DNA from: Candidatus Dojkabacteria bacterium
Lineage (GTDB): Bacteria > Patescibacteriota > Dojkabacteria > SC72
Length of the DNA: 64,000 bases
Assembly (NCBI GenBank): GCA_035370405.1
Contig: DAOOVT010000001.1
Coordinates: 485-64,484, forward strand
Reading direction: 5' to 3'
Shown: positions 3,785-62,415 of the stretch, piece after piece
How the letters are laid out: each line of letters begins with the position of its first letter
Position numbering within the stretch: position 1 is the stretch's first letter
Notes under the pieces: generated by a model
What the model was told of the DNA's origin: nothing
The model's input: the letters and a program-made list of their open reading frames with translations, nothing else
Database searches by the model: none
Position numbers and translations under genes: made by a program

Positions 3785-3819
3785 AGATTCTAAATTAAAA
3801 CAAATATGTTAGCAACACT

Positions 3820-6869: not shown

Positions 6870-6926
6870 GACTGCACAAAAACATTAGTTTAGTACAGTA
6901 ATAATACCATAATAAATTGATAAACA

Positions 6927-7673
6927 TTACCTATTTTTCTTCTTTTTTCTTTTCTTACGCTTTTTCTCTTTACTTGAAGGAACATTCACCGTATTTACTT
7001 CTGTATTTACTCCTACATTTTTTTCATCTTTATTTTTACTGACAAGGAAAATCGATCCTATTTTCGATGCAAATTCATTAAACTTTTCAGCTATTCCAAC
7101 TTCAGTTGCATATCTAATTCTTTTTGACTTAACAGCCTCTTGGACCTCCTCCTTTGATGTTTCAATTTGCTCTTTCATAACTTCCATTGTTGGAACAAGA
7201 TCAGGAGCAAATTCTGCATCATCTGCAATCGTACTTCCACAATTAGGACAATATGTGTTTCCTCTATCAACATATATTCCACAATGTGAACATTTCACTT
7301 TAAGCTCATACCTACAATTTGGACAATATATATACCCAGGAGCAAGTTGTGCCCCACACTGTGGACAATCTCCAAGTTCAGCAGTCTCATATTTAAGATA
7401 TCTTCTTTCTAAATCACCCCAATATATTTCTTCTATTGTACGACTTGGCCTTATGAGTAGATATATTATCAATCCAATTATATTTAATATTCCAACCAAC
7501 AACACATAACATATTTTTACAAATGTACTAGAAGACCTTTCGGAAGCATCAAACCAAACCCAATACAGTACGACAATCCAAAAAATCACCAGAATAATAC
7601 CAAGAAATTTTATAGCCGAATCAAAATTTATCTCTCCTATCGTATCAAAGAAATCTAGTATGAAATCCTCCAT
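6927..7673 (-). CDS. Membrane protein with a C-terminal zinc-ribbon domain.
   Basis: Two TM helices, then CPQCGAQL...CPNCRYEL...CSHCG...CPNCGS (four CxxC pairs) and a lysine-rich tail. The start is trimmed to the internal Met (MEDFILDFF) because the longer ORF overlaps tRNA-Leu. Confidence 0.45.
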   Translation of the reverse strand: MEDFILDFFDTIGEINFDSAIKFLGIILVIFWIVVLYWVWFDASERSSSTFVKICYVLLVGILNIIGLIIYLLIRPSRTIEEIYWGDLERRYLKYETAELGDCPQCGAQLAPGYIYCPNCRYELKVKCSHCGIYVDRGNTYCPNCGSTIADDAEFAPDLVPTMEVMKEQIETSKEEVQEAVKSKRIRYATEVGIAEKFNEFASKIGSIFLVSKNKDEKNVGVNTEVNTVNVPSSKEKKRKKRKKKKNR

Positions 7674-7697
7674 TTTTATACTTCTCGAATTAAAATA

Positions 7698-7783
7698 TGG
7701 TCGAGGAGGGAATCGAACCCTCATGCTATTTTATTAGCACGGGATTTTGAGTCCCGCGTGTCTGCCAATTCCACCACTCGACC
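7698..7783 (-). tRNA. tRNA-Leu (anticodon CAA).
   Basis: The reverse complement folds as a cloverleaf. Acceptor GGTCGAG/CTCGACC, anticodon loop CTCAAAA, a long variable arm (TGCTAATAAAATAGCA), T-loop TTCGATT. Confidence 0.8.
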
Positions 7784-7903
7784 ATCAGCTGATTATACAT
7801 CTGATATACATATTTTCTCAACACATACAAAATATTTATATCTCCCAAATACCAAATCGTGATAGACTACTATATACGAGTTGATTTAATAATAGGAAAA
7901 AAA

Positions 7904-8434
7904 ATGACAAAATACATATTGATATTCCTTCTGTTTTCATTCTTAGGATGGATAGTCGATACTACATATTCCTCACTCTTAAAAGGACAATACAAACCTT
8001 CTGGATATTATGAAAATATTCCGATCTGCCCAATATATGGCATTGGAGGAATTATTATCTTAAGTATTTTTTCTATTTTACAATCATATCCTCCGCAAAT
8101 AACTATCATCACTACTACTTTTGCAATCATAATGCTTGAGTATTTTGGTGGGATTTTTTGTACTGTATTTTTGAAGGAAAAGCTATGGGATTATTCATCC
8201 TCCAAATTTAACATAGGAGGACACATAGATCTTCTTCATTCTTTTTTCTGGCTTGTACTCATTACAATCGTCTATATGATTATAGATCCAATACTTCCAA
8301 ACATTACAACATATTTGAATACTGTAAACAATTCATTAGGGAAATTCGATTTCTACATAACAGTGGTCTTCTTATCTACTGTTATCATAATGACTATAAA
8401 CACGAGAGAAAAAAGATCCTTATCTATTCGCTAA
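7904..8434 (+). CDS. Small polytopic membrane protein of unknown function.
   Basis: Start MTKYILIFLLFSFLGWIVDTTYSS, preceded by AGGA. Four to five predicted TM helices. Vaguely reminiscent of PF06541-type putative transporter membrane proteins. Confidence 0.4.
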   Translation: MTKYILIFLLFSFLGWIVDTTYSSLLKGQYKPSGYYENIPICPIYGIGGIIILSIFSILQSYPPQITIITTTFAIIMLEYFGGIFCTVFLKEKLWDYSSSKFNIGGHIDLLHSFFWLVLITIVYMIIDPILPNITTYLNTVNNSLGKFDFYITVVFLSTVIIMTINTREKRSLSIR

Positions 8435-9596: not shown

Positions 9597-11507
9597 ATGA
9601 AATCAGTTTACAAGACAGTCACTACAGTCCTCATACTATTTTCTCTGATGATACATCCTTCTTTAGCATCTTCTAAAAAAGGAGACTTCATCATAGATAC
9701 AGATACTGAATTTTCATACACAACTGGAAATGACTATGTAACTGTAAAAACTGAGTATATTAGAGAAGTTCTAAACGAAAACTATTATCTACCTGCTCAA
9801 GGAGAAAGAATCTTCCATCTCCCAGATGCATCAGCAACATCTCAAGAAAAAGTAAATGAAGAAAGAGAATACAAACTCTCAACCCTTAAAGTTGTAAATG
9901 AACTTGGAACACCTTTGAAATATGAAGTAGAACAACTTAATATCGGAGAAGGAATCTACATTAAGGTTGGTAATTACCGAGACACTACTGTGAGTTCTCC
10001 ATACCATGTTACAGTGACATACAACACCCATGATTATGTCCTAAAGGCAGGAAATTACATAACCATAGTAGGAACATCTCTTCCAAAAGACATTAAATTT
10101 GAAGAGGTAGATGAGAACAATGGAACAACAACATATTACAACTATTATTTTAGAATAGTAACAGACAAAAATATTCCTCCGCTCAGCAAAATATTTCCCA
10201 AGTTTTCCAAATCAGAAAATAGCTCTCATGTATATTATGAATTTGCCCAAACTGACCGAATAGAAAATGCTCCTGTGCTAGAATTCGGAACAAATGCAAC
10301 ATACAAATTTGAACTTTCTTACACTACTCCCAAGACTGATAATATGACACCAACTGTGTATTCGGACATTTTCCAATCAGTATCTACTAATATATATGAG
10401 CTATCCCTTCCTAGAGAATTCTCTGAAACAAACCAACATGTTTACTTCGAGAATGTTTCCCCTCTTCCTAAAAGAATACATGTAGACAGTGAAGGAAACC
10501 TTTTAGCAACTTTCGAAGTACCAGCAAACAAAGAGAGTAATATAACAATAACAGGATATATCACTGTGCAGCAGAATGAATATGAAAAGCAAAATAACAA
10601 TGCTCTCTCAATAGAATTAACCGATTATTATTCTAAAATACAGCAATGGAGTACTTCAAATACCTATCTCAGACCCACAAAATTTTGGCAAAGTACTGAT
10701 CAATATATTGTACAAATTGCAAATTCTCTGCTTAAGGATCAAGCCACTTTACTCGATGTCATCAAAGCAGACTACAAGTTTGTGGGAGACACCTTAGAAT
10801 ATGACGATGAGAAAGCTAATTCTGATAACACAAGAATAGGTGCAGTTGCTGCCCTATCAGGTGGAAAATCAGTTTGTATGGAATACGCAGATTCGCTGAT
10901 TGCAATCCTAAGAGCACAAGGAATTCCTGCTAGAGCAGCACTAGGATACACCAATATTGTAGATCAAAGTGTTAAACAGATAAGGCACCAATGGGTTCAG
11001 ATATGGGTACCAGATTATGGATGGCTGTCAGTAGATCCAACATTTGAAAGCGAGAATATGAAAATAGGACCAATGATAGACAGAATACTCTGGGAAACAT
11101 TCAACGGAGATTCTCTTTCTAACATTATGATTTATTCTGCTGACAAGTTGCAAAATCTTAGTAATGAAGGCTTTTCATTAACAATATACTCTGCAGAAGA
11201 AACCTTCAATCCTGCCAACCTCATGACTTATACAGATTTACTAAAAGATCAACCAATAGAAAGTGCAGAGCAATACAGAGTATCCTACTGGTTAGACACT
11301 CTTCTAAAAGCCACTGTCCTAGGACGAGCCATACTCATCACAATACCAGTCATCATTTGTGTCTTAGTAGTTGTAATCATTATCACAATAATAAAAGAAA
11401 TTCGCAGAAAGATAAAAACAAAGAACATTAAAAGACAACTAACAAACAAAGACCAAAATGCAAACCTACTTAGGTATTCAGAAACTTCAGAAACTTCTAA
11501 AAAGTAA
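9597..11507 (+). CDS. Secreted transglutaminase-like cysteine-protease-domain protein with a C-terminal TM anchor.
   Basis: Signal peptide (MKSVYKTVTTVLILFSLMIHPSLASS). A Cys-His-Asp triad context (GGKSVCMEYADSL...RHQWVQIWVPDYGWLSVDPTF). C-terminal TM (ILITIPVIICVLVVVIIITII) and a basic tail. Confidence 0.7.
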   Translation: MKSVYKTVTTVLILFSLMIHPSLASSKKGDFIIDTDTEFSYTTGNDYVTVKTEYIREVLNENYYLPAQGERIFHLPDASATSQEKVNEEREYKLSTLKVVNELGTPLKYEVEQLNIGEGIYIKVGNYRDTTVSSPYHVTVTYNTHDYVLKAGNYITIVGTSLPKDIKFEEVDENNGTTTYYNYYFRIVTDKNIPPLSKIFPKFSKSENSSHVYYEFAQTDRIENAPVLEFGTNATYKFELSYTTPKTDNMTPTVYSDIFQSVSTNIYELSLPREFSETNQHVYFENVSPLPKRIHVDSEGNLLATFEVPANKESNITITGYITVQQNEYEKQNNNALSIELTDYYSKIQQWSTSNTYLRPTKFWQSTDQYIVQIANSLLKDQATLLDVIKADYKFVGDTLEYDDEKANSDNTRIGAVAALSGGKSVCMEYADSLIAILRAQGIPARAALGYTNIVDQSVKQIRHQWVQIWVPDYGWLSVDPTFESENMKIGPMIDRILWETFNGDSLSNIMIYSADKLQNLSNEGFSLTIYSAEETFNPANLMTYTDLLKDQPIESAEQYRVSYWLDTLLKATVLGRAILITIPVIICVLVVVIIITIIKEIRRKIKTKNIKRQLTNKDQNANLLRYSETSETSKK

Positions 11508-47786: not shown

Positions 47787-48842
47787 TTAAACCAGCTCAT
47801 CCCATGATTTTTGTATTCTTTGGAGTAGATCTATGTGATCGAGCATTAGTGCTGTACCTTTAGCTGTTACAGACATAGGTTCATCAACTATTTTAACTGG
47901 CATATTAAGTTCTTCACTAAGGTATACATCCATTCCTCTTATCAATGCGCCCCCACCAGTAAGATATACACCTGAAGTAAGTAAATCCTTCAGAAGTTCT
48001 GGCGGAGTATCTTCTATGGCATCTTTTACAGATTCTGTTATTATTCCAATGGTATTCATGATTGCTTCTCTTATCTCTATGCTGTTAATTTCAACAGTTT
48101 TGGGTAATCCGGTAAGCAAATCACGTCCTTGCACACCCTGTTTCTTTTCCTTTTTTAGAGGAATAGCTGAACCCATGAGTATTTTAATATCTTCTGAACT
48201 TCTCTCACCTATCAGAACATTGTATTTATTCCTTATGTAATTAACGATATCCTCATCCATTTCATCTCCAGCCACTTTCATTGTTTTGTCAACAACAATA
48301 TCTCCGAGTGAAAATACTGCTATATCCGTAGTCCCTCCCCCTATATCAACAATCATGCTCCCTGAAGCATCTTCAACAGGAAGACCAGCCCCTACTGCAG
48401 CAGCCATAGATTCTTCAACTATGAAAACTTCCCTAGCTCCAGCAGTTTTTACTGCATCTATAACTGCTTGTCTTTCAACTTCGGTAACAGATGATGTTAC
48501 TCCAACAATAACTCTTGGCCTTGGTATCTTAAACCCCTTACTAAAGTATGTGTGAGCTTTCTTTATGAAGTGAGAAATCATTGCCTGTGTTGTATCAAAA
48601 TCTGAGATAACTCCATCTCTAAGAGGTCTTACTGCAACTATATTAGCTGGAGTTCTCCCTATCATCTGACGAGCTTCCTTCCCTACAGCAAGTACCATTT
48701 TTGTCCGCTTATCAACAGCTACAACTGAGGGTTCAGAGACAACAACACCATGATTTCTCATGTACACCATAGTATTGGCAGTACCTAAATCTATTCCAAA
48801 ATCATATGTAACTAATTCCCATAGGGAATCAAGCATACCCAT
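47787..48842 (-). CDS. mreB: Rod shape-determining protein MreB (actin-like ATPase).
   Basis: FGIDLGTANTMVY (phosphate 1), IVDIGGGTTDIAV (phosphate 2). Confidence 0.9.
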   Translation of the reverse strand: MGMLDSLWELVTYDFGIDLGTANTMVYMRNHGVVVSEPSVVAVDKRTKMVLAVGKEARQMIGRTPANIVAVRPLRDGVISDFDTTQAMISHFIKKAHTYFSKGFKIPRPRVIVGVTSSVTEVERQAVIDAVKTAGAREVFIVEESMAAAVGAGLPVEDASGSMIVDIGGGTTDIAVFSLGDIVVDKTMKVAGDEMDEDIVNYIRNKYNVLIGERSSEDIKILMGSAIPLKKEKKQGVQGRDLLTGLPKTVEINSIEIREAIMNTIGIITESVKDAIEDTPPELLKDLLTSGVYLTGGGALIRGMDVYLSEELNMPVKIVDEPMSVTAKGTALMLDHIDLLQRIQKSWDELV

Positions 48843-51042: not shown

Positions 51043-51606
51043 ATGAGCAAAAAGATTGAGAAAAAAGAAAAGAAAGAGAACCCAAATGCAAAATGGTATG
51101 TACTAAACATAAGAACAGGATACGAGAACAGTGTTCAAAAAGAAATAATGCAAAGAGCAACAGCAACTGGAATGCAAGATAAAATAGTAGACATGCTAGT
51201 TCCCATACAAAAGAAGATCGTTGTAAAGAAAGGGAAACAAGATGTAAAAGAAGAAAAAATATTTCCAGGCTATGTTCTCATTAAAATGGAGCTTGATAAC
51301 GCAACATGGGACTTAGTTCAAAACACAGAAGGAGTCAGAGGATTTGTAAAAACAGACAGATATCCCAAGCCATTAGCAGAATCAGAAGTAAAAGCAATAA
51401 CAAAATTCATGGAAATTGAACAACCTTCATATCAAAGCTCATTTAGTATTGGAGAAGCAGTTAAAATTACTGATGGTGCATTTGCTGACTTCATAGGAAG
51501 CGTACAGGAAATTGACACTACCAAGGGTAAGATAAAAGTCCTCATCTCATTCTTAGGTAGAGAAGCTCCTGTAGAATTAGAGCTTTCTCAAGTTTCTAAA
51601 CTTTAG
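51043..51606 (+). CDS. nusG: Transcription termination/antitermination factor NusG.
   Basis: NGN domain (WYVLNIRTGYENSV). KOW motif (IGEAVKITDGAFADFIGSVQEID). Confidence 0.9.
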   Translation: MSKKIEKKEKKENPNAKWYVLNIRTGYENSVQKEIMQRATATGMQDKIVDMLVPIQKKIVVKKGKQDVKEEKIFPGYVLIKMELDNATWDLVQNTEGVRGFVKTDRYPKPLAESEVKAITKFMEIEQPSYQSSFSIGEAVKITDGAFADFIGSVQEIDTTKGKIKVLISFLGREAPVELELSQVSKL

Positions 51607-51627
51607 TAAAATTAAAAATATTCAGAT

Positions 51628-52056
51628 ATGGCAAAAGAAATTAAAAAAATAATAAAGATAACTATCCCTGCAGGAATGGCTACAATGGCACCCCCCATAG
51701 GCCCTACCCTAGCCCCATATGGGATAAACACACAAGATTTTTGTGCTCAATTCAATGAAAAAACAAAAGAAAATGGTGGAATATTAACACCAGTCGTTTT
51801 AACTATCTATGAAGACAGAAGTTTTGATTTCATACTCAAAACTCCACCAACTTCTGAATTAATTAGAAGAGAATTAAAAATTAAGAAAGGATCAGGAAAA
51901 CCAAATCTTGAAAAGGTAGGGAAAATTTCAAAAGAACAAATTGCAAAGATTGCAGAGATAAAGATGCCAGACTTAAACACATCAGACCCTAAACAGGCAG
52001 CAAAAATAATTGCTGGTACTGCTAAACAGATGGGCGTTGAGACTGATATTAAATAA
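51628..52056 (+). CDS. rplK: 50S ribosomal protein L11.
   Basis: IKITIPAGMATMAPPIGPTLAPYGIN, the L11 signature. Confidence 0.9.
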   Translation: MAKEIKKIIKITIPAGMATMAPPIGPTLAPYGINTQDFCAQFNEKTKENGGILTPVVLTIYEDRSFDFILKTPPTSELIRRELKIKKGSGKPNLEKVGKISKEQIAKIAEIKMPDLNTSDPKQAAKIIAGTAKQMGVETDIK

Positions 52057-52076
52057 TAATTGTTACCAAAATAACT

Positions 52077-52760
52077 ATGAAAAGAGGAAAAAAATATAAA
52101 AAGATAACACAAGATTTGGATAGAAGTGCTTCATACACACTACAACAAGGAATAAAAAAGATTAAGACCCTCTCCTACTCCAAATTTCCAGGAACACTTG
52201 AATTACACATTGATTTGAAAATACCAAAAGATAAAGATCCAAAATCCTTAAAAGGAGCGGTTTCACTTCCCAATGCTACAAATACTAAAAACATTAAAGT
52301 CGCAGTATTTTGTACTCCTGATAAAGAAGAAGAAGCAAAAAGTGCAGGAGCAGATTTTGTTGGATTAGATAGCTTAATAAAAGAGATAAAAGAAAATGGC
52401 CCTCACTTTGATGTTGCAATTGCAACACCATCTGTTATGCCTAAAATAGCTGTCTTAGGAAAAGAATTAGGTCCAAAAGGCTTAATGCCAAATCCTAAAA
52501 ATGGAACAGTAACAGAAAATATTTCCAAAGCTGTTTCCGAATACAAAAAAGGAAAACAAACATTCGCATGTGATCCATCTGGAGTAGTACATATGGCAGT
52601 AGGATCATTAGACATGGAAGATCAAAAATTAGAAGAAAATATCCATACAGCAATATCAGCAATTTCTGAAGTTGTTGGGAAATCTTATGATCAAATTATA
52701 CAGAGAATGTACATCTGTCCTACAATGGGACCAAGTATAAAGATCAATTATTCCAGATAG
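52077..52760 (+). CDS. rplA: 50S ribosomal protein L1.
   Basis: 227 aa. FPGTLELHIDLKIPKDKD...AVFCTPDKEEEAKSAGADFVG. Confidence 0.9.
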   Translation: MKRGKKYKKITQDLDRSASYTLQQGIKKIKTLSYSKFPGTLELHIDLKIPKDKDPKSLKGAVSLPNATNTKNIKVAVFCTPDKEEEAKSAGADFVGLDSLIKEIKENGPHFDVAIATPSVMPKIAVLGKELGPKGLMPNPKNGTVTENISKAVSEYKKGKQTFACDPSGVVHMAVGSLDMEDQKLEENIHTAISAISEVVGKSYDQIIQRMYICPTMGPSIKINYSR

Positions 52761-52874
52761 CCTTACAACCCTCTTCTACAGCAAACATATCATAGGGAGT
52801 TTACAAGTTTGGCAATACAAACTACAATTATTCTGTCTGCTCTTACAAAACAGAAAAAATGAAAGGAGGCTCAA

Positions 52875-53087
52875 TTGTTAGCTAAAGGAAAGTGGATACT
52901 CATTTATGATAATGGATATAGATATCTAGTATCAATCGCTGGAGATCATTATGAAAGACTAGAAATCATATCAGTAATATCGGAAAACAGTGGTATTGCA
53001 AGAGATGTTAATACTGGAAAGTATTATGAGTACAATAATGAATCTGGTTCTCTCTTTCTCAAAGAATCATTTATCCCATCGGATTAA
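52875..53087 (+). CDS. Small 70-aa hypothetical protein (TTG start) inserted between rplA and rplJ.
   Basis: A perfect Shine-Dalgarno AAAGGAGG at 52862-52869, 5 nt before a TTG start. An ORF of 70 codons. No recognisable family. Confidence 0.4.
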   Translation: MLAKGKWILIYDNGYRYLVSIAGDHYERLEIISVISENSGIARDVNTGKYYEYNNESGSLFLKESFIPSD

Positions 53088-53106
53088 ACTGTTTTGTAGA
53101 GCACTC

Positions 53107-53166
53107 TTAGTGAGTCTAATAAGAAATGTAAATTCATTTTTACTTCTGCCCTATTAGACTCACTAA
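53107..53166 (+). terminator. A 15-bp perfect-stem hairpin (attenuator, terminator, or rplJ-leader structure).
   Basis: TTAGTGAGTCTAATA (53107-53121) pairs with TATTAGACTCACTAA (53152-53166), with a 30-nt loop. A T-rich tract follows. Confidence 0.4.
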
Positions 53167-53204
53167 TAATATTCTGTGTATTTGTTGATTGATATTAAAT
53201 CATC

Positions 53205-53213
53205 TGATATAAT
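53205..53213 (+). promoter_or_regulatory. Extended -10 promoter (TGaTATAAT) upstream of rplJ.
   Basis: TGATATAAT lies 88 nt upstream of the rplJ ATG. An internal L10 promoter at this position is known from E. coli. Confidence 0.45.
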
Positions 53214-53301
53214 GCACGAGACTTACCGAAGAAATAAGGTACAAAAATAAATCCTTACGAGGCAAGTGTATGTTCAACTATAATTATTAACTATAACAAA
53301 T

Positions 53302-53823
53302 ATGGCGAAAAGTCACTTACAAAAGGTTGATTTACTAGATAAATATAAACATATCATTCAGAATAAAAAAGGCTACCTACTAGTCAATTCTGACAAAGTC
53401 AATGCTTCTGATGTTGCAAAATTAAAAATACAACTAAAGGAGGCTAATGCTGACTATGCAGTTTTGAAAAACACAGTCTTTAAAATAGCTCTTCAAGAGA
53501 CTAACCAACCACTGCAAACACAGGAAGTAGATGGACCTACAGCAATCATATATTTTGATGAAGATCCTACTTCTCCAGCGAAATTAATAAAGCAGATTCA
53601 AAAAGAAAAAGGCCTTCTCTCAGCAAAATTTGGTGTATTTGAAAATGAATTCCTTTCAAGTGAAAGAGTTATGGAATTAGCAGATATTCCATCGAGAGAT
53701 GTTCTACTTTCAAGGCTTGCAGGATCTATGAATGCATCATTAACAGGATTTATGAACACAATCACAGGAAATATCAAAGGTCTAACTTTGGTTCTTAAAG
53801 GCATTTCTGAAAAAAGTGCTTAA
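53302..53823 (+). CDS. rplJ: 50S ribosomal protein L10.
   Basis: 173 aa, MAKSHLQKVDLLDKYK...YLLVNSDKVNASDVAKLK. Precedes rplL. Confidence 0.9.
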   Translation: MAKSHLQKVDLLDKYKHIIQNKKGYLLVNSDKVNASDVAKLKIQLKEANADYAVLKNTVFKIALQETNQPLQTQEVDGPTAIIYFDEDPTSPAKLIKQIQKEKGLLSAKFGVFENEFLSSERVMELADIPSRDVLLSRLAGSMNASLTGFMNTITGNIKGLTLVLKGISEKSA

Positions 53824-53859
53824 TTTAGAAACAATTAATTAACTTAATTCTTTAAAAAT

Positions 53860-54261
53860 ATGGCAGACGAAGCAAAAACACTACCCGAATTGTCAGAAAA
53901 TGGCAAAAAGGTTCTCGAAATAGTCGAAAAAATGACTGTTTTAGAACTCTCTGATTTGGTAAAAGTCATGGAAGACAAATTCGGAGTATCAGCCTCTGCA
54001 CCTGTTGCTATTGCAGCACCAGTTGAGGCTGCACCTGCTGAAGAGGAGAAAACAATGTTCAACATTCTCCTTAAAGATGCAGGAGCAAACAAGATTGGAG
54101 TCATAAAAGCAGTAAGAGAAGTAACAGAACTCGGCTTAAAAGAGGCAAAAGATCTTGTTGATGCTGCACCTCAAGTAGTTAAGGAAAATGTCAAGAAAGA
54201 GGATGCTGAAGCTATAAAAGCAAAATTTGAAGAAGCAGGAGCAACTGTTGAATTACAGTAA
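53860..54261 (+). CDS. rplL: 50S ribosomal protein L7/L12.
   Basis: An Ala/Glu-rich hinge ([17 protein letters not shown]). C-terminal domain [27 protein letters not shown]. Confidence 0.95.
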
Positions 54262-54287
54262 GCTACACTACTCTACTTTAAAGAATG

Positions 54288-54320
54288 AAGGGACTGTTTT
54301 TGGACAGTCCTTTTCTTTAT
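54288..54320 (+). terminator. Rho-independent terminator after rplL.
   Basis: AAGGGACTGT-TTTTGG-ACAGTCCTTT stem-loop (10 bp including one G-U pair), followed by TTTTCTTTATT. Confidence 0.7.
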
Positions 54321-54336
54321 TAAATACTAATAAACC

Positions 54337-54366
54337 TTGCTTCTTTCATATTCATTGGAATATAAT
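54337..54366 (+). promoter_or_regulatory. Sigma70-type promoter for the 7TM/ATP-grasp operon.
   Basis: TTGCTT, an 18 nt spacer, then TATAAT (54361-54366), 47 nt upstream of the ATG at 54413. A second TGATATAGC box lies at 54401-54409. Confidence 0.5.
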
Positions 54367-54412
54367 TACCTGTGTGATTTTGATATCTAAAATTATCATC
54401 TGATATAGCGAG

Positions 54413-55081
54413 ATGACATATTCCCCATTTACTTCATGGATTCTAGATAATGGTGTCTCTCAACAGACATTAGAACTTCTAGTATCTATAACTGTTGTTG
54501 CAACAATCGTAAGCATATTCAGATACATTTTTGGAGGAAAATCATATGGTATATATTCCCCAATTATTTTAGCAATAGCATACTCATATACTGGTCTTAA
54601 ATATGGACTAGCCATAACTGCCGTTGTCATAATAACAACCCTTGTCTCCTACTCGGTACTGAAAAAGATAAGAATGCATTACATTACAAGAATTGCAATA
54701 AATTACTGCCTTCTAGTAATTGCAATTCTCATGCTCATAATAGCTACCTACAAATATGATTTGGGCTTAAAAAATACATCTATGATATCCCCTCTAGCAC
54801 TTGTATCCATTGCAACTCTTTCTGATTTCTTTGTAAAACAATTTACCCAAAAATCCTTAAAAACTTCATTCTCTCCTCTCATAGGAACAATCGTAATAGC
54901 ATCAATCGGTTGGTACATAATAACTTCTGAGCAAATATCACAGTACATGATTAACAACCTCTGGATAATACCTCTACTCATATTCATAAATATACTCATA
55001 GGACAATTCAAAGAACTTAGAATTAAGGAAATCCTCAGATTTAATTCCATAGTTGGGAACAAGGACAATGCTCAAAAGTAA
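54413..55081 (+). CDS. Seven-transmembrane membrane protein, the membrane partner of an alpha-L-glutamate-ligase-like system.
   Basis: Seven predicted TM helices in 222 aa. The 3' end overlaps the start of the downstream ATP-grasp gene by 29 nt. No transglutaminase-like domain is present. Confidence 0.55.
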   Translation: MTYSPFTSWILDNGVSQQTLELLVSITVVATIVSIFRYIFGGKSYGIYSPIILAIAYSYTGLKYGLAITAVVIITTLVSYSVLKKIRMHYITRIAINYCLLVIAILMLIIATYKYDLGLKNTSMISPLALVSIATLSDFFVKQFTQKSLKTSFSPLIGTIVIASIGWYIITSEQISQYMINNLWIIPLLIFINILIGQFKELRIKEILRFNSIVGNKDNAQK

Positions 55082-56525
55082 AGGTTACAAAGAAATATTA
55101 GGTATCAACAGAAGGAATCAGGAATACATCCGTCCGTATAACTCTGCTAGAGCTAAAAATATTGCAGACAACAAAATTCTTACAAAAAAAATACTAACTG
55201 AAAATGGAATCTTAACACCTAAAATTTACAAAGTTGTAAAAGACAGAAAACAATTAGAATTTTTGAATTGGGATTCACTTCCTAAAAGTTTTGTAATTAA
55301 ACCTAACAAAGGCACAGGAGGCAATGGCATCATTATATTCTACGGGAAGAAAAAAGGACAAACAGCTTGGATAAGACCAAACGGAACTGTAATGTCTAAA
55401 TATGACATCTCCTTACATATTGCAAATATTCTTGATGGAAGATACTCCATGGGAAATAAAAAAGATACAGCAATCATAGAAGAAAGAGTCAAAACAGACC
55501 CTTTTCTTAAGCAATATTCATACAAAGGAGTTCCTGATATAAGGGTAATATGCTTCAAAGGAGTACCCATAATGGCCATGATACGAATTCCAACTAAAAG
55601 ATCAAATGGAACTGCAAATCTACATTCTGGAGCAATATGCACTGGTATAGATATAGCTACAGGAATTACCACATATTCTATGCAAATGGATACAAAAAGT
55701 ATATTTAGTGATGTATATGAAGATATAGAATATACTACAGACCTAGAAGATAATAAAAAGCTCAGTGGTATAACTATTCCTGATTGGAACAAAATACTCG
55801 AAATAGCTCTAAAGTGCCAAAAGGTTACAAAACTTGGATACATTGGAGTAGACATATCAATAGATGCAGAAAAAGGTCCTGTTGTTTTTGAATTAAACGC
55901 TAGACCAGGATTAGGAATACAAGTCGCCAATAAAGCAGGATTAAGATCTAGACTAGAACTAATAAAAGAGGTTGATGTAAAAAGTATCAGACACGGTATA
56001 AAGATTGCAAAAGATCTTTTTGGTGGAGAAATTGAGGAGAGTATAGAATCAATAAGTGGAAGAAAAGTAGTTAATATTATTGAAAAGGTAACATTATTTG
56101 ATAGACAAGCACTTTCTGTCAAAAAGAAAAATAAGAATAATAAACAACCCTCTAAGGTTTTTATGGATACAAGTATTCTCACATCTAGAATTACAGAAGC
56201 AACAGCAAATAGAATTGGTTTCCTTTCAACCACAAAATATTTTAATTCCTTAAACGTTCCTGAAAAATTCAATACACTTAAAGATGCTCAGAAGTATATT
56301 GATGAAAATATTCAAGCACTGACATTAGAAGAAGGAATAAAGAGGATTGCCAAAATTGCAGATGGCAATGATGTGAAGATACGCCCTGTAATAGAAATAT
56401 CTATGGAAATAGCTGAACAGGTTAGATCTCTCGATGTTATAATCGTCCCAGATTTAGAGTATCCTATATCTATGGGAAGAAATGAATTGAAAGGATATTT
56501 AATTGATACCACACATACTTTTTAA
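55053..56525 (+). CDS. Alpha-L-glutamate-ligase-like (RimK-related, TIGR02291-like) ATP-grasp enzyme fused to a C-terminal retropepsin-like (RimB/DUF785-like) domain.
   Basis: The N-terminal half has ILGINRRNQEYIRPYN...FVIKPNKGTGGNGIIIF...YKGVPDIRVICFKGVPIMAMIRIPTKRSNGTANLHSGAICTGID...ELNARPGLGIQVANKAGLRSRLELIKE. This matches my memory of Pseudomonas/Vibrio alpha-L-glutamate ligase-like proteins. The C-terminal approximately 170 aa has VFMDTSILTSRITEA and IRPVIEISMEIAEQVRSLDVIIVPDLEYPISMGRNELKGYLID, matching the retropepsin-like putative zinc protease family. Confidence 0.65.
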   Translation: MGTRTMLKSKGYKEILGINRRNQEYIRPYNSARAKNIADNKILTKKILTENGILTPKIYKVVKDRKQLEFLNWDSLPKSFVIKPNKGTGGNGIIIFYGKKKGQTAWIRPNGTVMSKYDISLHIANILDGRYSMGNKKDTAIIEERVKTDPFLKQYSYKGVPDIRVICFKGVPIMAMIRIPTKRSNGTANLHSGAICTGIDIATGITTYSMQMDTKSIFSDVYEDIEYTTDLEDNKKLSGITIPDWNKILEIALKCQKVTKLGYIGVDISIDAEKGPVVFELNARPGLGIQVANKAGLRSRLELIKEVDVKSIRHGIKIAKDLFGGEIEESIESISGRKVVNIIEKVTLFDRQALSVKKKNKNNKQPSKVFMDTSILTSRITEATANRIGFLSTTKYFNSLNVPEKFNTLKDAQKYIDENIQALTLEEGIKRIAKIADGNDVKIRPVIEISMEIAEQVRSLDVIIVPDLEYPISMGRNELKGYLIDTTHTF

Positions 56526-56527
56526 AT

Positions 56528-57520
56528 ATGAAGAAATATGAGGAATATTTGAAAGAGTGTGGAAATGTACATTTAGCATATTACATTTGGGCTGCTAATA
56601 AACTTGGAATTCACTATGAAGTTTTAGTAAAAGGACTCCTTGCACAATTTAGTGATGGAAATGCAATATGGCATATAATAAATACAGCTACTCCATTAAC
56701 AACAACTACGTCAACAACAATATGTAAGAGGAAGAATTTAACTCATATGGTTCTCGAGAGGAATTGTATCGCTGTCCCAAGACAAAAGACCCTACTCTCT
56801 TCCTCCGATGCTGTGAATTTTTTTAATGAATATAAAGATATAGTTATTAAGCCAACACAACAACTTGGAGGAAAGGGAGTATCTATCCTCCCACAGAGCG
56901 AACAAGAAGCATCTGAGGCTTTCGAAAGAGCATCATTAGCCTCTCATTCAAAAACATCTTCCAAAGTTATTGCAGAGCAATTTGTGCATGGACAAAATTA
57001 CAGATTTCTAGTTCTAGGGGATAGTGTTATAGCAGTAGCAAGAAGAAAATCAGCCCATGTTATAGGTGATGGAAAAAGTAATATCAAACAGCTCATAGAA
57101 CAAACAAACATAATTCGTAAAAATTCTTTGTTAAAGCCTATCATCATAGATGATGAGGTTAATCTAAAGCTAAAAAGAGATTTCCTATCATTGGACACTG
57201 TACCAAAAGCTGGACAAGAAATAATATTAAGATATAACTGCAATTTGACTACAGGAGGAACTACAGAAGAATGCATGAGTGAAGTTGACAATTACTATAA
57301 GGAAGTTGCTATAAACGCAGTTAAAATAGTAGGTGCAGAATTTGGAGGAGTAGACATTATTGCAAAAGACATATCCTCCATCGGAGAATTTGCTGTAAAT
57401 GAAATCAACTACAACCCTGGATTAAGACTCCATTACAAAGTTGATAAAGGTAATATTACTGATGTTGCTGTCCCAATAATGCAGTACATTAGAGATAAAT
57501 ATATAAACTTACCAAAATAG
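56528..57520 (+). CDS. Cyanophycin-synthetase-like ATP-grasp ligase (CphA G-domain homolog; no Mur-ligase domain).
   Basis: IVIKPTQQLGGKGVSI...NYRFLVLGDSVIAVARRKSAHVIGDGKSNIKQLIEQTN...YNCNLTTGGTTEE...GVDIIAKDIS...AVNEINYNPGLRLH. This parallels the CphA ATP-grasp motifs (VVVKP..GNHGRG; YRLLVVG..VAAARR.PA.V.GDG..T...LIE..N; NLSTGG; VEVNAGPGLRMH). Confidence 0.6.
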   Translation: MKKYEEYLKECGNVHLAYYIWAANKLGIHYEVLVKGLLAQFSDGNAIWHIINTATPLTTTTSTTICKRKNLTHMVLERNCIAVPRQKTLLSSSDAVNFFNEYKDIVIKPTQQLGGKGVSILPQSEQEASEAFERASLASHSKTSSKVIAEQFVHGQNYRFLVLGDSVIAVARRKSAHVIGDGKSNIKQLIEQTNIIRKNSLLKPIIIDDEVNLKLKRDFLSLDTVPKAGQEIILRYNCNLTTGGTTEECMSEVDNYYKEVAINAVKIVGAEFGGVDIIAKDISSIGEFAVNEINYNPGLRLHYKVDKGNITDVAVPIMQYIRDKYINLPK

Positions 57521-57527
57521 TACAAAA

Positions 57528-59234
57528 ATGCAAAAAAACACACAAGTACTGCAAGGGTTAAACCTCCTTTCGACAACTTCTCTAGTCACAATAAAAATTC
57601 AAAACAAAGAAAATGTAGAAAAACTACTAAAACAAATAACCTCCTACCACCCAATATTCATAGATAAATACCACTTTGAACAAAATAATCTCTTAATAGA
57701 AACCGCTATCCCATTCGTATGGAGAGAAGCATCAACATATATTCAAAAGCTATCGCAGGGAGAGCTATCATACAAAGATTGTAAGAAGAAAATAGTAGAA
57801 GACATAATAACCCGAAGACTAGCATCTATGTCTACTATTCCTGTTCTCCATTCAGCACACAAACAACAAAAAGAGATAACTCCAACAATAATCTCCGATT
57901 ACAACTCCTCGAAGAATAAGGCTACAGAATCTAAAGGATTTAATAGATATTACACATTAGGCTGTGGTAAGGAATCCCAAGTAATATATTCAATATCCTC
58001 TAGCAAAGATTCAAAAACTGCAAAACAAATACAAAGAGACAAATGGAGCACCAATATGCTAATGGAAAGACTTGGTCTTCCAATACCGAAATGGCAACTA
58101 GTAGGAAGCAAGGCTGATATAGACAAAATCTGGGATAGTTACACAAAACCAGTAGTCATAAAACCTACAGGCCTTGCAGGAGGTAATGGAGTAGTTCTAG
58201 GAATCAAAACAAAAGAACAATGCAAAAAAGCATTTGACTTTGCTCAAAAGGCAACAAATACATTTCCAAGAAGTGCATGGCAGAAAAAAATTATGATACA
58301 AGAACAAGTTCAAGGAGAAGATTACAGACTACTAATAGTCGATGGCAAATTTGAAGTAGGTACAAAAAGAATTCCAGCATTCGTAACTGGTGATGGAAAA
58401 AACAGCATAAAGAAATTAATAGAAGAAGCAAATAAAGATCCAAAAAGAGACCTATCTAACCCATCTCACACACTAAAACCAATAATCATTGACGATCCTC
58501 TACTAGATTATCTAAAACAACAAAAGCTATCTCTCGAAGAAATCCCTCAAAAGGGACAAAAAATACAACTTAGAAAAGTTGCAAGCATGAGTCAAGGAGG
58601 TATCACTGAAGATGTCACAGACCTTGTTGGAGCAGAAATTAGATACATCGCAGAAAGCATAGCTCAATCAATACATGCATTCACTCTGGGTGTAGATGTA
58701 CTTTGCAAAGACATCACTAAACCACTCACAAAGGAAAATGGAGCAATACTCGAGGTAAACACTATGCCAGAAGTATATCTCAACATATTCCCAGTAATAG
58801 GAGAAGAAAAAACAAATGTAATAGACACATATGTAGACAAACTTCTTTCTGGAAATAACACTAAAAGAATTGTAGTTGTAGGGAATCCATCAATAGATAT
58901 CTCTACAATGTTAAAAAGAAAAACATTCATCTGCTCATACTTAAAACAAGATGACGTCGTCGGAGAATATAGAGACAAAGAATTAAGAATAAATGGCCTT
59001 ACAATAAACAAAGAGCTAAAAAAAGAAAAAGCTCTTGAGGCACTAAAAATAAATGCTGCATTAGATGCAATAATACTACATCATAGAAATTGGGAAGAAG
59101 TAGAAGAAACAGGTTTAGGTTTTGAAAAAATAGACCTATTAATAATTACAAAAGATATGAGAAAAGACAAAAGATTTAATCAAATTTTGAGATACAGACT
59201 AAGAGGACTAATTACAAAGATTAAAATTATTTAA
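57528..59234 (+). CDS. Cyanophycin-synthetase-like ATP-grasp ligase with a unique approximately 160 aa N-terminal domain (CphA N+G-domain-like; no Mur-ligase domain).
   Basis: VVIKPTGLAGGNGVVLGI...DYRLLIVDGKFEVGTKRIPAFVTGDGKNSIKKLIEEANKDPKR...ASMSQGGITEDVTDLVGAEIRYIAESIA...GVDVLCKDITKPLTKENGAILEVNTMPEV. This is a strong resemblance to the CphA G-domain, including the DPRRG-like NKDPKRD loop. Confidence 0.65.
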   Translation: MQKNTQVLQGLNLLSTTSLVTIKIQNKENVEKLLKQITSYHPIFIDKYHFEQNNLLIETAIPFVWREASTYIQKLSQGELSYKDCKKKIVEDIITRRLASMSTIPVLHSAHKQQKEITPTIISDYNSSKNKATESKGFNRYYTLGCGKESQVIYSISSSKDSKTAKQIQRDKWSTNMLMERLGLPIPKWQLVGSKADIDKIWDSYTKPVVIKPTGLAGGNGVVLGIKTKEQCKKAFDFAQKATNTFPRSAWQKKIMIQEQVQGEDYRLLIVDGKFEVGTKRIPAFVTGDGKNSIKKLIEEANKDPKRDLSNPSHTLKPIIIDDPLLDYLKQQKLSLEEIPQKGQKIQLRKVASMSQGGITEDVTDLVGAEIRYIAESIAQSIHAFTLGVDVLCKDITKPLTKENGAILEVNTMPEVYLNIFPVIGEEKTNVIDTYVDKLLSGNNTKRIVVVGNPSIDISTMLKRKTFICSYLKQDDVVGEYRDKELRINGLTINKELKKEKALEALKINAALDAIILHHRNWEEVEETGLGFEKIDLLIITKDMRKDKRFNQILRYRLRGLITKIKII

Positions 59235-59269
59235 ACAAACATAATTAATTTATTAGGAAATATAAATCT

Positions 59270-60238
59270 ATGCGATTCTTAATTATTGAAAAAAGACAAA
59301 GGATCAATAATAACAGATTCAAAACAGATATACCAACAGGCTCTGAGAGACTAATAGAGGAACTGAAAAAAAGAAATATAGAATATGATTTCATATACAA
59401 TGATCAGCTAGAATTCATCTTTAAACCATATACTATGAATATCCTTGCAAATGGGAAAGATATTCTGGAATACTCCCATATACTATTCAGAGGACACGCC
59501 CTTCACAATGACAAAGAATACCATTTCAAACGATATATCATAGATTATGTTGACAATTACAATAAAAAAAATACAAATAACAAAATTCTTGTACAAAATG
59601 CAGATGCAATAAAAAAACTCCCATACTATAACAAGATAGCAATGGCACAACTATGCTATGAAAATAATCTCCCCTACTTCACCACATATTATAGACCAGA
59701 TGGAAATTACTCCAATTCACAAAGAAGCATTCTAAATGAATATCCTTTAGTTATAAAGGAATACACAGGAGAGAATAGAATAGAATTAATTGATGGAGTT
59801 GAAAAAATCAAAAAGAATGTCTTCAAGCTTAACAATTTAGATGATTATTCACAACAAGGACTTAAAGATCAAAACCTAGCTAATTTCTTCATTCAAGAAT
59901 TTTCCAATGCAGGAGAAGACTACAGGATATTTGTAAAACTTGGAAAAGTTGTCGCTGGATGGAAAAGAAAAAGCACCAAGAATTTTATAACTGTAAATCA
60001 AGGAGAATATGAAATATACAATGAACCCAATGAAGAAATAAAGACTATTGCAGAAAGAATGAGCAATGTCTTAAACGCTGATTTTGTAGCAGTCGACTTT
60101 ATGTATATAGGAGACAAACCATATATACAAGAGCTTTCCCTACACCCTGGATACAAAGCTTACGAAACAAAAGCAAAGGGAACTCCCATAAATATTGCAG
60201 AACAAATAATATCGGCTTTTAAAGTCCCACCTTTCTAA
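59270..60238 (+). CDS. RimK/LysX/GshB-type ATP-grasp ligase.
   Basis: GEDYRIFVKLGKVVAGWKRKS...VNQGEYEIYN...DFVAVDFMYIGDKPYIQELSLHPGYKAY, the ATP-grasp C-terminal core with an RimK-like DxRxxV...NxxxG layout. Confidence 0.55.
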   Translation: MRFLIIEKRQRINNNRFKTDIPTGSERLIEELKKRNIEYDFIYNDQLEFIFKPYTMNILANGKDILEYSHILFRGHALHNDKEYHFKRYIIDYVDNYNKKNTNNKILVQNADAIKKLPYYNKIAMAQLCYENNLPYFTTYYRPDGNYSNSQRSILNEYPLVIKEYTGENRIELIDGVEKIKKNVFKLNNLDDYSQQGLKDQNLANFFIQEFSNAGEDYRIFVKLGKVVAGWKRKSTKNFITVNQGEYEIYNEPNEEIKTIAERMSNVLNADFVAVDFMYIGDKPYIQELSLHPGYKAYETKAKGTPINIAEQIISAFKVPPF

Positions 60239-61379
60239 ACATACTAAGCCACTGATCTTTTGTAGGAACATTAGATGCTCTTGGAATTAAACCATCTTCT
60301 ACCCATTCACACTGTTTAATAGAAATTTTCCCAGAATAAAGACTATTGTACAATGATGGATTCTTTGCAATACTAGAAGATACTTTTCTAAAACCTCTAA
60401 AATACACTATATCTTTTACATATATTCCAGCTTTTGATGTATCAGAAAGCCCTCTTTTCACCCTATACGCAACATTAAACGCTGACTGCTTCGGAAATAT
60501 TCCATGTAAACAGTTATACAATTCTCTAAACGAAAGATTCCCTCCTACATATATCGCATATGTTAAAGCAACCTTCCTTTTTAAACTACTTTCAGTCAAA
60601 ACATTTACATTACTTTCATTCCACGTAGCAAGTCCCTCTTCTGCATCTAAATAGGCTGGTAAATTTGAGTTACCTAGAGCAGGAAACCCAGTATTTAGAC
60701 CATTAACAGTTCTCAAAACATGTGTTCCGACCTCATGAATTAATGTTTTCTTTAACATAAGAGCATCTCTCTTTATTCCTTCATCAACAAAAATCTCTTT
60801 GCTCTTTATCCCTACTCTAACAGAATTCTTTCGAATATTTGATGATTTTTCTACTTTCCAACCATTCAAATTCAACATCGTAAATATATTTTGAAAAATT
60901 CCCAATATCTCATCATACTCATACAATCTTCTATCCTTTGATTTATCTACCTTTACAAGATTGTAACTTTTGGTATTACCTCTAAGTACTCTACATGAAT
61001 TTCTAAATAGCTTCCCGCTTGGAAATCCGAATCTTTCAATGGAGATATCTGTAATAGCTTCATTATTCCCAACTGAGTTAATAAGATCATTAGCTTGTTT
61101 CTTAGATGATATTAATGATATGTAAAAATCAGAAATTCTTGGATCTACATCTATTATTTCCTCTACAGACAGAAGTTTTCTGAAAATTTCATCATTCCTG
61201 TTTCGAACGGTTTTGTATTTAAAAACAGGATTATATGTATCAGATTCAAAAAATTTCTCTTCCTCCTCTTCCAAATTAATAGGAGTAAGTACAAATGAAG
61301 TAGGAATTCTCAATTGACCAAGAAGTACAGATACTTCATCTAGTTTCATTTGTTTTATACTTTTATTCAATATTTTCAT
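60219..61379 (-). CDS. DUF1704/QEGLA-motif gluzincin metallopeptidase (MATCAP-like carboxypeptidase family).
   Basis: HEVGTH (HExxH), then about 27 residues later AEEGLATW (the QEGLA-type third zinc ligand). 386 aa. Convergent with, and overlapping by 20 nt, the 3' end of the ATP-grasp operon. Confidence 0.6.
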   Translation of the reverse strand: MKILNKSIKQMKLDEVSVLLGQLRIPTSFVLTPINLEEEEEKFFESDTYNPVFKYKTVRNRNDEIFRKLLSVEEIIDVDPRISDFYISLISSKKQANDLINSVGNNEAITDISIERFGFPSGKLFRNSCRVLRGNTKSYNLVKVDKSKDRRLYEYDEILGIFQNIFTMLNLNGWKVEKSSNIRKNSVRVGIKSKEIFVDEGIKRDALMLKKTLIHEVGTHVLRTVNGLNTGFPALGNSNLPAYLDAEEGLATWNESNVNVLTESSLKRKVALTYAIYVGGNLSFRELYNCLHGIFPKQSAFNVAYRVKRGLSDTSKAGIYVKDIVYFRGFRKVSSSIAKNPSLYNSLYSGKISIKQCEWVEDGLIPRASNVPTKDQWLSMFRKVGL

Positions 61380-61395
61380 ATACTATAACTAAACA

Positions 61396-62415
61396 TTATT
61401 TCCTAAAATCACGATTAAAAGTAAATGTTCTTTCTCCTCTGGCTATTAATTCTAAAGCTATCCCTGTTCCCTTTACAACGCAATATATAGGCTCATCAGC
61501 TACATGTGAAGGAACACCTGTTGCTCTGGAAAATAACTTATCTAAATTTCTCAACTCTGATGTTCCGCCACTCATAACCATTCCCCTATCTATTATATCG
61601 GCTGAAAGTTCTGGAGGAGTTTTTTCCAATACATTTCTAATACTTCTAATAATTGATTTAAGTGGAAAATCTATTGCTTTTGCAACATCATTTGAATCAA
61701 CAATTATCGATTTTGGCATACCGGCCCCAACATCTCTTCCTCTCACCTCCATCTGTGCAGGATCTCTAACTTCAACAGCAGACCCTATTTTTATTTTAAT
61801 ATTCTCAGCTGTCTGCTCACCGATCATAATCCCTTTCTTCTTCCTCATATATGAAATTATTGCTTCGTTCAAAGAATCCCCTGCAACACGCAATGACTCA
61901 TACTCAACTATTCCATCAAGTGACATAACTGCAATTTCTGTAGTTCCTCCACCCATATTCACAATCATATTTCCAGAAGATGTATGTATCGGAAGTTGAG
62001 CTCCTAATGCAGCAAGAAGTGGTTCGGGTAGTAATGTTATACTTTTCGCTCCAACAGAGTTTGCCGCTTTTAATACAGCTCTCTCCTCAACAGAAGTAAT
62101 TCCTGCAGGTACACTTATAACCACATCAGGCTTAAAAAATCTAGACTTTCCTAGTGCTTTATCAAAAAAATATCTCAACAAAGCCTCTGTAACCCTAGAA
62201 TCTGCTATTACTCCACTTCTTAGTGGCCTTTTAGCAATAATATTCTCAGGGGTCTTTCCAATCATTTCTTTTGCCTCCTTTCCAACTGCTATTACTGTGT
62301 ATGTATTTACATCAATAGCTACAACAGTAGGTTCAGAGAGCACAATCCCCTCTCCCTGTACAAAAACCACAGAGTTCGCAGTTCCTAAATCTAACCCTAA
62401 CTTCTTTCCAAGCAT
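61396..62415 (-). CDS. Second MreB-like actin-family ATPase paralog.
   Basis: LGLDLGTANSVVFV and IVNMGGGTTEIAV (actin-fold phosphate motifs). 339 aa. Its stop lies 16 nt upstream of the DUF1704 peptidase start. Confidence 0.8.
   Translation of the reverse strand: MLGKKLGLDLGTANSVVFVQGEGIVLSEPTVVAIDVNTYTVIAVGKEAKEMIGKTPENIIAKRPLRSGVIADSRVTEALLRYFFDKALGKSRFFKPDVVISVPAGITSVEERAVLKAANSVGAKSITLLPEPLLAALGAQLPIHTSSGNMIVNMGGGTTEIAVMSLDGIVEYESLRVAGDSLNEAIISYMRKKKGIMIGEQTAENIKIKIGSAVEVRDPAQMEVRGRDVGAGMPKSIIVDSNDVAKAIDFPLKSIIRSIRNVLEKTPPELSADIIDRGMVMSGGTSELRNLDKLFSRATGVPSHVADEPIYCVVKGTGIALELIARGERTFTFNRDFRK

Follow-up and report, generated by a model that had tools for sequence, protein, structure and literature searches.

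The Rlo system of Pseudomonas aeruginosa, encoded by rloABC, comprises a membrane protein, RloB, in which an inactive transglutaminase is joined to seven transmembrane (TM) helices, a cytoplasmic ATP-grasp protein, RloC, and periplasmic RloA proteases that cleave polyglutamate (polyE) (mBio 2025, PMC12239564). Deletion of rloB or rloC suppresses the phenotypes of the rloA1-3 triple mutant (PMC12239564), which places the joint action of RloB and RloC upstream of the protease. RimB, which also cleaves polyglutamate, trims in the cytoplasm the polyglutamate made by RimK, and 96% of the matches to RloB come from Proteobacteria (PMC12239564).

Here we consider a 64,000-nucleotide (nt) stretch of contig DAOOVT010000001.1 from a Candidatus Dojkabacteria bacterium (called the window below; G+C content 34%) and, within it, the gene at 54413-55081, which encodes a seven-helix (7TM) membrane protein. 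Candidatus Dojkabacteria, formerly candidate division WS6, belongs to the Candidate Phyla Radiation (CPR). Our results show that this gene encodes the membrane subunit of a CPR version of the Pseudomonas Rlo system and that, judging from the overlap of its stop codon with the start of the next gene, it is translationally coupled to an ATP-grasp ligase gene. Because the ligase carries a fused putative retropepsin, three Rlo activities are packed into two coupled genes, and nothing in them is predicted to be extracytoplasmic.

The open reading frame (ORF) of the 7TM protein starts with ATG, and public databases contain an identical protein, whose NCBI annotation reads '7TM domain-containing protein [Candidatus Dojkabacteria]'. 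A word-indexed search gave more than 400 homologues at E<=1e-3; the best 120 are 220-226 amino acids (aa) long and 61-100% identical, and those aligned share the start methionine. The protein matches the Pfam family PF14402 (7TM_transglut) with E 2.3e-18 and 67 bits, above the gathering threshold of 25, over profile positions 52-247 of 248. The Pfam search returned no other family for it and, in particular, no match to PF14400 or PF01841.

Against the NCBIfam model of RloB (NF052267, osmotic stress tolerance membrane protein), the protein scores 54.1 bits with a cut-off of 900 and is thus not a full-length RloB. The alignment is confined to model positions 310-506 of 508, the C-terminal 7TM part, and therefore the RloB-type N-terminal ectodomain is missing. 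About 20 residues precede TM1, and they contain no counterpart of the periplasmic inactive transglutaminase; the protein starts at the juxtamembrane segment where its fused relatives begin to align. A search of solved structures with a profile of 49 diverse homologues gave a best E of 0.84, which is at the level of chance.

An earlier note on this DNA, made from the letters alone, had stated that the proteobacterial membrane component is a 7TM protein fused to an inactive transglutaminase, and both RloB (PMC12239564) and the Pfam name of PF14402 agree with this. Its description of the protein as only 222 aa long and lacking a soluble domain is borne out, since the match to the RloB model is confined to its 7TM part. 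The profile search that it proposed gave the PF14402 match cited above and no confident match to an unrelated transporter family.

The topology was assessed from the Kyte-Doolittle hydropathy of the single sequence, together with the column average over 49 diverse stand-alone homologues, and from the positive-inside rule. Six hydrophobic blocks are seen, at residues ~16-40, 45-79, 95-116, 124-138, 155-170 and 181-197; since block 45-79 is of double length, with the conserved Gly61 and Gly65 at its turn, the six blocks correspond to seven helices. The 'seven clear helices' of the earlier note therefore fit the family in number, and the word 'clear' was slightly generous, as TM2 and TM3 form one continuous hairpin block.

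Per sequence, the TM3-4 loop contains on average 3.2 lysine and arginine residues, the TM5-6 loop 2.2 and the C-terminal tail 5.2; the N-terminal 21 residues, which are acidic (aspartate plus glutamate, 2.2), contain 0.6. This skew indicates an N-out/C-in topology, so that the 7TM protein is predicted to have seven helices with its N-terminus outside and its C-terminus in the cytoplasm. The outside location of the N-terminus agrees with the fused relatives, in which an ectodomain bearing a signal peptide lies ahead of TM1. In the alignments of stand-alone homologues, many of the most conserved residues fall in the predicted cytoplasmic segments (R37, Y38, G41, K43, H89, Y90, K147, G197, L202, R203, R209 and F210), and conserved polar residues also occur inside the predicted helices (T31, T159, N182 and N193).

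The ligase gene overlaps the stop codon of the 7TM gene by 14 nt. Its ATG at 55068 gives the 485-aa form found in public gene calls, and translation may instead begin further upstream, at a TTG at 55053. The ligase matches PF14397 with E 5e-71 and 239.6 bits (cut-off 31.4). It does not belong to the RimK family, its score against TIGR00768 being 53.6 bits with a cut-off of 143.4. Beyond the ATP-grasp domain it has approximately 180 further residues, which are kept in all orthologues (482-497 aa); the 72 complete ligase ORFs of related genomes are all 482-490 aa long.

In this C-terminal region we find the motifs FMDTS (with Asp367) and RPV...YP..GR, together with a two-helix insertion. A profile of the domain matches the PDB entries 9g59 (E 0.0045) and 9g58 (E 0.013), each named 'putative ATP-dependent zinc protease domain', and the aligned parts include the motifs FMDTG..TSR and RPVI...YP..GR. 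Comparison by hhalign with the retropepsin of P0389, a relative of the 7TM protein described below, gave a probability of 81%.

A PDB search with the model of the full-length ligase returned only ATP-grasp enzymes, and the C-terminal domain was therefore modelled separately. The AlphaFold2 (AF2) model of this domain has a mean predicted local distance difference test score (pLDDT) of 85.8, and the top matches found with it by Foldseek in the PDB are 2pma (DUF785/PF05618), 9g58 (RloA) and 9g59 (RloA2), with E from 4e-6 to 7e-5, followed by the Ddi1 and HIV proteases. The window ligase can also be aligned over its entire length with its counterpart in a divergent lineage (locus L088), with 35% identity and E 1e-84, and the C-terminus of the latter exceeds the PF05618 gathering threshold with the full model covered, as does that of L085. 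Matches to PF05618 were found on the ligases of L084, L087 and L088.

Taken together, the profiles and the structural model identify the C-terminal domain of the ligase as a divergent retropepsin of the RloA/RimB type: like the Rlo system of Pseudomonas, this locus has a candidate retropepsin of the PF05618 type, supported by fold and profile matches to RloA and by relatives that score above threshold. A signal peptide sets RloA apart from RimB, and the window domain has none. As it also sits at the C-terminal end of a soluble ATP-grasp enzyme, the protease is presumably located in the cytoplasm.

The arrangement of the genes was compared across the loci of 80 Dojkabacteria species representatives, many of which stop at contig ends. 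The common order is rplJ - rplL - 7TM - ligase::retropepsin - two ATP-grasp ligases resembling the G domain of cyanophycin synthetase - RimK-like ligase, followed on the reverse strand by a MATCAP/QEGLA peptidase and mreB. The 7TM gene is present in all 80 loci, ligase::retropepsin in 73, the first cyanophycin-synthetase-like gene in 71, the second in 63, the RimK-like gene in 59, the peptidase gene in 53 and mreB in 59.

The PF14402 gene and the PF14397-type ATP-grasp gene thus not only adjoin and overlap in the window: the order 7TM gene, then ligase gene is found in 73/80 Dojkabacteria genomes and also in the divergent lineages L081, L083, L084, L085, L087 and L088, and the pair is kept where the 7TM proteins share only 30-40% identity. 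The overlap of the 7TM stop and ligase start measures 8-17 nt in 40 of the 42 loci where it could be evaluated. In L081, L083, L087 and L088, the pair lies directly 3' of rplL, and the series secE-nusG-rplK-rplA-rplJ-rplL runs ahead of it in these four lineages as well as in the window (51043-55081 with the 7TM gene). In bacteria, rpoBC is usually found 3' of rplL.

Some genomes have inserts of 2-8 kb between rplL and the 7TM gene, and we examined these for an ectodomain or transglutaminase gene that might be hidden there. None was found; the inserts hold unrelated genes, mostly on the opposite strand, coding for a helix-turn-helix (HTH) membrane protein, a glycosyltransferase-like protein and, in one case, a protein of 1,708 aa.

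The wider family was surveyed by an exhaustive search of 1.84 billion representative proteins, in which 852 clusters matched the 7TM protein at E<=1e-3. The top 150 clusters were sorted by length: 55 are stand-alone proteins of 200-265 aa, 27 (266-340 aa) have mostly a signal peptide and a low-complexity linker ahead of the 7TM part, 7 fall at 341-470 aa, 47 exceed 470 aa, and 14 are shorter than 200 aa and likely to be fragments. Of the 47 long relatives, PKD domains are present in 43 and Transglut_core in one, and no match to PF14400 occurs in any of them. Based on this breakdown, the ectodomain is a variable accessory and stand-alone forms are common. The Pfam name of PF14402 itself says 'usually fused'.

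Three relatives are of particular use for comparison. P0389 (377 aa; 2938-4071 of locus L086) has a signal anchor and a PF05618 retropepsin before its 7TM module. In P0339 (1213-2829 of locus L089), Transglut_core is fused to the 7TM module, and the Cys and His of the catalytic triad are kept with Asp replaced by Cys (C-H-C; ...WVPFCPT). In P0386, of the same architecture, Ser stands in place of the triad Asp (...LSPF). The gene that follows that of P0339 in L089 codes for a protein of 1088 aa. L085, whose relative of the 7TM protein has the PKD+7TM architecture, also has the fused ligase::retropepsin downstream.

An explanation that would remove the 7TM protein from the Rlo family altogether is that it is an unrelated small transporter or a hydrophobic ORF that lies by chance beside ligase genes. 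All that speaks for it is that the protein is small and has no characterised function. It is refuted by the PF14402 match, well above threshold and with no other family, by the number of matching clusters and by the adjacency and overlap with the ligase gene, which are strict across lineages, and we regard its probability as negligible.

The earlier note had also drawn attention to a secreted, membrane-anchored transglutaminase-like protein with an intact Cys-His-Asp triad, encoded some 43 kb away, and had suggested a split or minimal version of the system. The description of this protein is accurate. It has a signal-like hydrophobic segment at residues 7-25 (...SLA/SS), belongs to PF01841 Transglut_core (E 3.6e-19, 69.5 bits, cut-off 23), and ends with a strong TM segment at 578-596 and a basic tail. 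Cys427, His464 and Asp480 are conserved in 100% of 121 orthologues, and the distance between this gene and the 7TM gene is 42.9 kb.

If the system were split, the RloB ectodomain would have become detached, and this protein would supply the transglutaminase in trans at the outer face of the membrane. Both proteins are membrane-embedded, with the transglutaminase portion directed outward, and Transglut_core is fused to the 7TM module in some lineages (RloB, PMC12239564; P0339 and P0386). Orthologues of both genes are widespread in Dojkabacteria, and for this reason their co-occurrence within the phylum is uninformative.

The genomic and domain data point the other way. A tblastn search found the transglutaminase-like gene within 10 kb on either side of the 7TM gene in 0/80 loci, although the rest of the cluster is syntenic. 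The gene keeps a conserved housekeeping neighbourhood of its own, with the order YchF - TGase - AMP/thymidine phosphorylase - IF-2B-like in the window and in one relative. One relative carries the gene for ribosomal protein S6, the substrate of RimK, near the transglutaminase gene; no S6 gene was found near it in the window at 4900-8000.

Only the generic PF01841 was matched by the protein: PF14400 gave no match at E<=0.01 with the whole protein or at E<=1 with the core, and the RloB model was not matched. The invariant triad is opposed to the loss of Asp in both 7TM-fused domains that were inspected. The similarity of the core to that of P0339, 27% identity over 124 residues, is ordinary for the superfamily. 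In architecture the protein, 636 aa long with a large N-terminal part that is not transglutaminase and with its own C-terminal anchor, is unlike the RloB ectodomain. The nearest 7TM relatives, moreover, have PKD domains or nothing at the ectodomain position.

A split system is thus highly improbable, and of the earlier suggestion it is the minimal version that stands, since the protein consists of the 7TM part only. We conclude from sequence features that the transglutaminase-like gene encodes an independent surface enzyme, probably catalytically competent given its intact triad, that is unrelated to the 7TM/ligase system. Among solved structures, the one nearest to it in sequence is 6g49, a protein-glutamine gamma-glutamyltransferase.

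The reading that joins these results is a CPR version of the Rlo system in which the 7TM protein is the bare RloB module, coupled to an RloC-type ligase-retropepsin, with the enzyme docked at the membrane and the transglutaminase independent; we put its probability at about 65%. That the parts work as one unit is argued by their fusion in three pairwise combinations, namely, transglutaminase with 7TM in RloB, retropepsin with 7TM in P0389, and ligase with retropepsin in the window and its relatives.

According to the mechanism that we propose, the ligase would build an acidic peptide or tail, which may resemble poly-alpha-glutamate if RimK and the polyE-cleaving RloA and RimB are a guide, and the fused retropepsin would trim this product. 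Through the conserved loops and tail on its cytoplasmic side, the 7TM protein would dock the ligase-protease at the membrane, and it would either pass the product across the membrane or couple the enzyme activity to the state of the envelope. The periplasmic inactive transglutaminase domain and the secreted protease would then be additions specific to the proteobacterial lineage, or else may have been lost here; their absence fits a CPR cell without a periplasm.

Several points weigh against this joint reading. The ligase scores 298.7 bits (E 4e-89) against TIGR02291, slightly under the cut-off of 314.2, and a Pfam search with the isolated C-terminal region of the window ligase gave no protease match, the threshold of PF05618 not being reached. 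The active-site motif of the window copy is D-T-S (56166-56174, residues 367-369 of the 485-aa ligase) and not the D-T-G found in 66/72 of the complete ligase ORFs. The domain lacks the Arg of the 'TDR' motif and keeps that of the 'RPV' motif; on our mapping of the numbering, these appear to be the polyE-binding residues R137 and R114 of RloA, respectively. Given the missing 'TDR' Arg, polyE may not be the substrate, and the substrate or the activity of the window retropepsin may differ from those of RloA and RimB.

It should also be noted that a cytoplasmic protease weakens the simple model of export followed by degradation outside that comes from Pseudomonas genetics. The lack of a periplasm in Dojkabacteria is taken from general knowledge of CPR cells. 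We know of no PF14402 protein with a known biochemical function, and docking and transport are both what we infer.

The remaining features of the region are listed in Table 1 with those described above. Terminator-like sites number 2 against 0.4 expected in shuffled sequence, and promoter-like matches 5' of the 7TM gene are no commoner than in shuffled sequence. The N-terminal ~140 (57528-57950) and C-terminal ~130 (58830-59234) residues of the second cyanophycin-synthetase-like ligase match no family at E<=0.1.

Table 1. Features of the window discussed in the text and their coordinates.
Feature	Position	Strand	Remarks
Transglutaminase-like surface protein, 636 aa: signal peptide, PF01841 core, C-terminal TM anchor	9597..11507	+	Judged to be outside the 7TM/ligase system
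MreB paralogues (two) flanking the region	47787-48842 and 61396-62415	both -	
Intrinsic-terminator-like hairpin and T-run after rplL, between the ribosomal-protein operon and the 7TM gene	54287..54314	+	12-bp stem, 4-nt loop, T-rich tail
Stand-alone PF14402 7TM membrane protein, RloB-type transmembrane module without ectodomain	54413..55081	+	222 aa
RloC-type ATP-grasp ligase (aa 11-305) with C-terminal putative retropepsin domain	55068..56525	+	PF14397, TIGR02291, structure matches
Putative retropepsin domain (RloA/RimB, PF05618-type) in the ligase, aa ~337-476	56076..56495	+	Profile, hhalign, AF2/Foldseek, PF05618 in relatives
ATP-grasp ligase like the G domain of cyanophycin synthetase, 330 aa	56528..57520	+	PRK14016 positions 167-470, E 8e-65
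Second ATP-grasp ligase like the G domain of cyanophycin synthetase, 568 aa	57528..59234	+	Extra N- and C-terminal regions
RimK-family-like ATP-grasp ligase, 322 aa	59270..60238	+	PF08443 E 4e-9; TIGR00768 50.7 bits, below cut-off
MATCAP/QEGLA-family (PF08014) metallopeptidase, HEVGTH and EEGLA motifs, convergent with the ligase genes	60219..61379	-	

The genes of the block at 56528-61379 are syntenic in 53-71 of the 80 Dojkabacteria loci, and the additional ligases of the block are absent from L085 and L087. The Rlo system has been assigned a role in hypo-osmotic stress tolerance, morphology and biofilm. The mreB gene next to the cluster is suggestive, given the cell-shape defects of the Pseudomonas rlo mutants; mreB also adjoins the cluster in L087 and L088. 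In the 540-nt gap between rplA and rplJ there is a 70-aa ORF (52875-53087) that has no Pfam match and may not be a gene. The spacing between rplA and rplJ varies widely across the 80 loci.

The richness of the cluster in ligases bears on the possibility that the 7TM protein is mainly a transporter, which would export the product of the four ATP-grasp ligases of the cluster, the retropepsin and the MATCAP-like peptidase serving only to set the chain length. In P. aeruginosa, the periplasmic location of the protease, together with the suppression by rloB and rloC deletions, implies that the product of RloC, or its effect, reaches the periplasm via RloB (PMC12239564), and the conserved polar residues in the helices as well as the synteny of the ligase-rich cluster could be read in the same way. 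The protein, however, resembles neither a known family of transporters nor a solved structure, there is no evident energy-coupling component, and the protease of the Dojkabacteria lineage is predicted to be cytoplasmic. Much of the conservation lies on the predicted cytoplasmic face and not along a pore, and L085 and L087, which lack the extra ligases, retain the 7TM/ligase pair. We therefore consider a mainly transporting role unlikely.

A broader proposal is that the whole cluster forms one membrane-associated machine, made up of the 7TM protein, the ligase-retropepsin, the two cyanophycin-synthetase-like ligases, the RimK-like ligase and the MATCAP-like carboxypeptidase. Such a machine would build and edit a non-ribosomal poly-amino-acid and either deliver it to the surface of the ultra-small CPR cell or attach it as a tag to a membrane or ribosomal protein, with the 7TM protein as conduit or acceptor. 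We hold this to be rather doubtful; if it were true, the 7TM module would be a new kind of peptide translocase or acceptor and a minimal model for the unsolved Rlo system of Pseudomonas.

Returning to the CPR version of Rlo preferred here, the bare observation is ordinary: the protein is already annotated in generic terms, and stand-alone PF14402 proteins are numerous. In the literature searched we found no description of the CPR-type arrangement and no mention of PF14402 or PF14397. What is without a found description is the combination of an ectodomain-free 7TM protein with a ligase-retropepsin fusion and no secreted part, placed after rplKAJL and beside mreB, to which Dojkabacteria add three further ATP-grasp ligases and a MATCAP-like peptidase.

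This arrangement suggests that the core function does not require the inactive transglutaminase ectodomain, that the seven-helix module, the ligase and the retropepsin, with their differing pairwise fusions, form one functional unit, and that the protease is able to work on the side of the cytoplasm. With it, the family reaches far outside the Proteobacteria, the group to which RloB seemed almost confined, and a system otherwise known but mechanistically unsolved gains a minimal form of two proteins that lends itself to co-folding, reconstitution and structural studies. For annotation, this means that no tie should be made between the 7TM/ligase system and the transglutaminase gene 43 kb away.

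The surface transglutaminase is best compared with the generic PF01841 surface proteins such as 6g49, with which it shares Transglut_core, the Cys-His-Asp triad, membrane anchoring and an outward orientation, and from which it differs in its large, unassigned N-terminal region and single C-terminal anchor. Within the PF14402 family, the proteins in which a PKD domain, a signal peptide with linker or a retropepsin precedes the 7TM part share that module with the window protein, and L085 shares the downstream ligase::retropepsin as well. These architectures carry an extracytoplasmic N-terminal domain or linker, whereas the Dojkabacteria protein begins at the juxtamembrane segment.

With RimK-RimB, the window pair has in common a cytoplasmic ATP-grasp ligase and a predicted cytoplasmic PF05618 retropepsin that would trim its product. 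It differs in that the ligase is not of the RimK family, a dedicated 7TM partner is present, and no link to S6 is seen; a RimK-like gene exists separately in the cluster (59270-60238).

The closest likeness is to the Rlo system itself. RloB and the window protein share the homologous seven-helix PF14402 module and a gene directly beside that of an RloC-type (PF14397/TIGR02291) ATP-grasp protein, and the RloB system likewise includes a retropepsin of the RloA/RimB type. The window protein differs from RloB by the absence of the N-terminal signal anchor and of the inactive transglutaminase ectodomain, by its length (222 versus ~508 aa) and by its CPR host. The ligase domain belongs to the same Pfam family as RloC and comes near to the same TIGRFAM family, and the retropepsin shares with RloA (9g58, 9g59) the predicted fold, the D-T-G/S active-site motif and RPV...YP..G(R). 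What RloA and RloC do as separate proteins is here joined in one polypeptide, whose protease has no signal peptide, contains the two-helix insertion and is devoid of the 'TDR' Arg.

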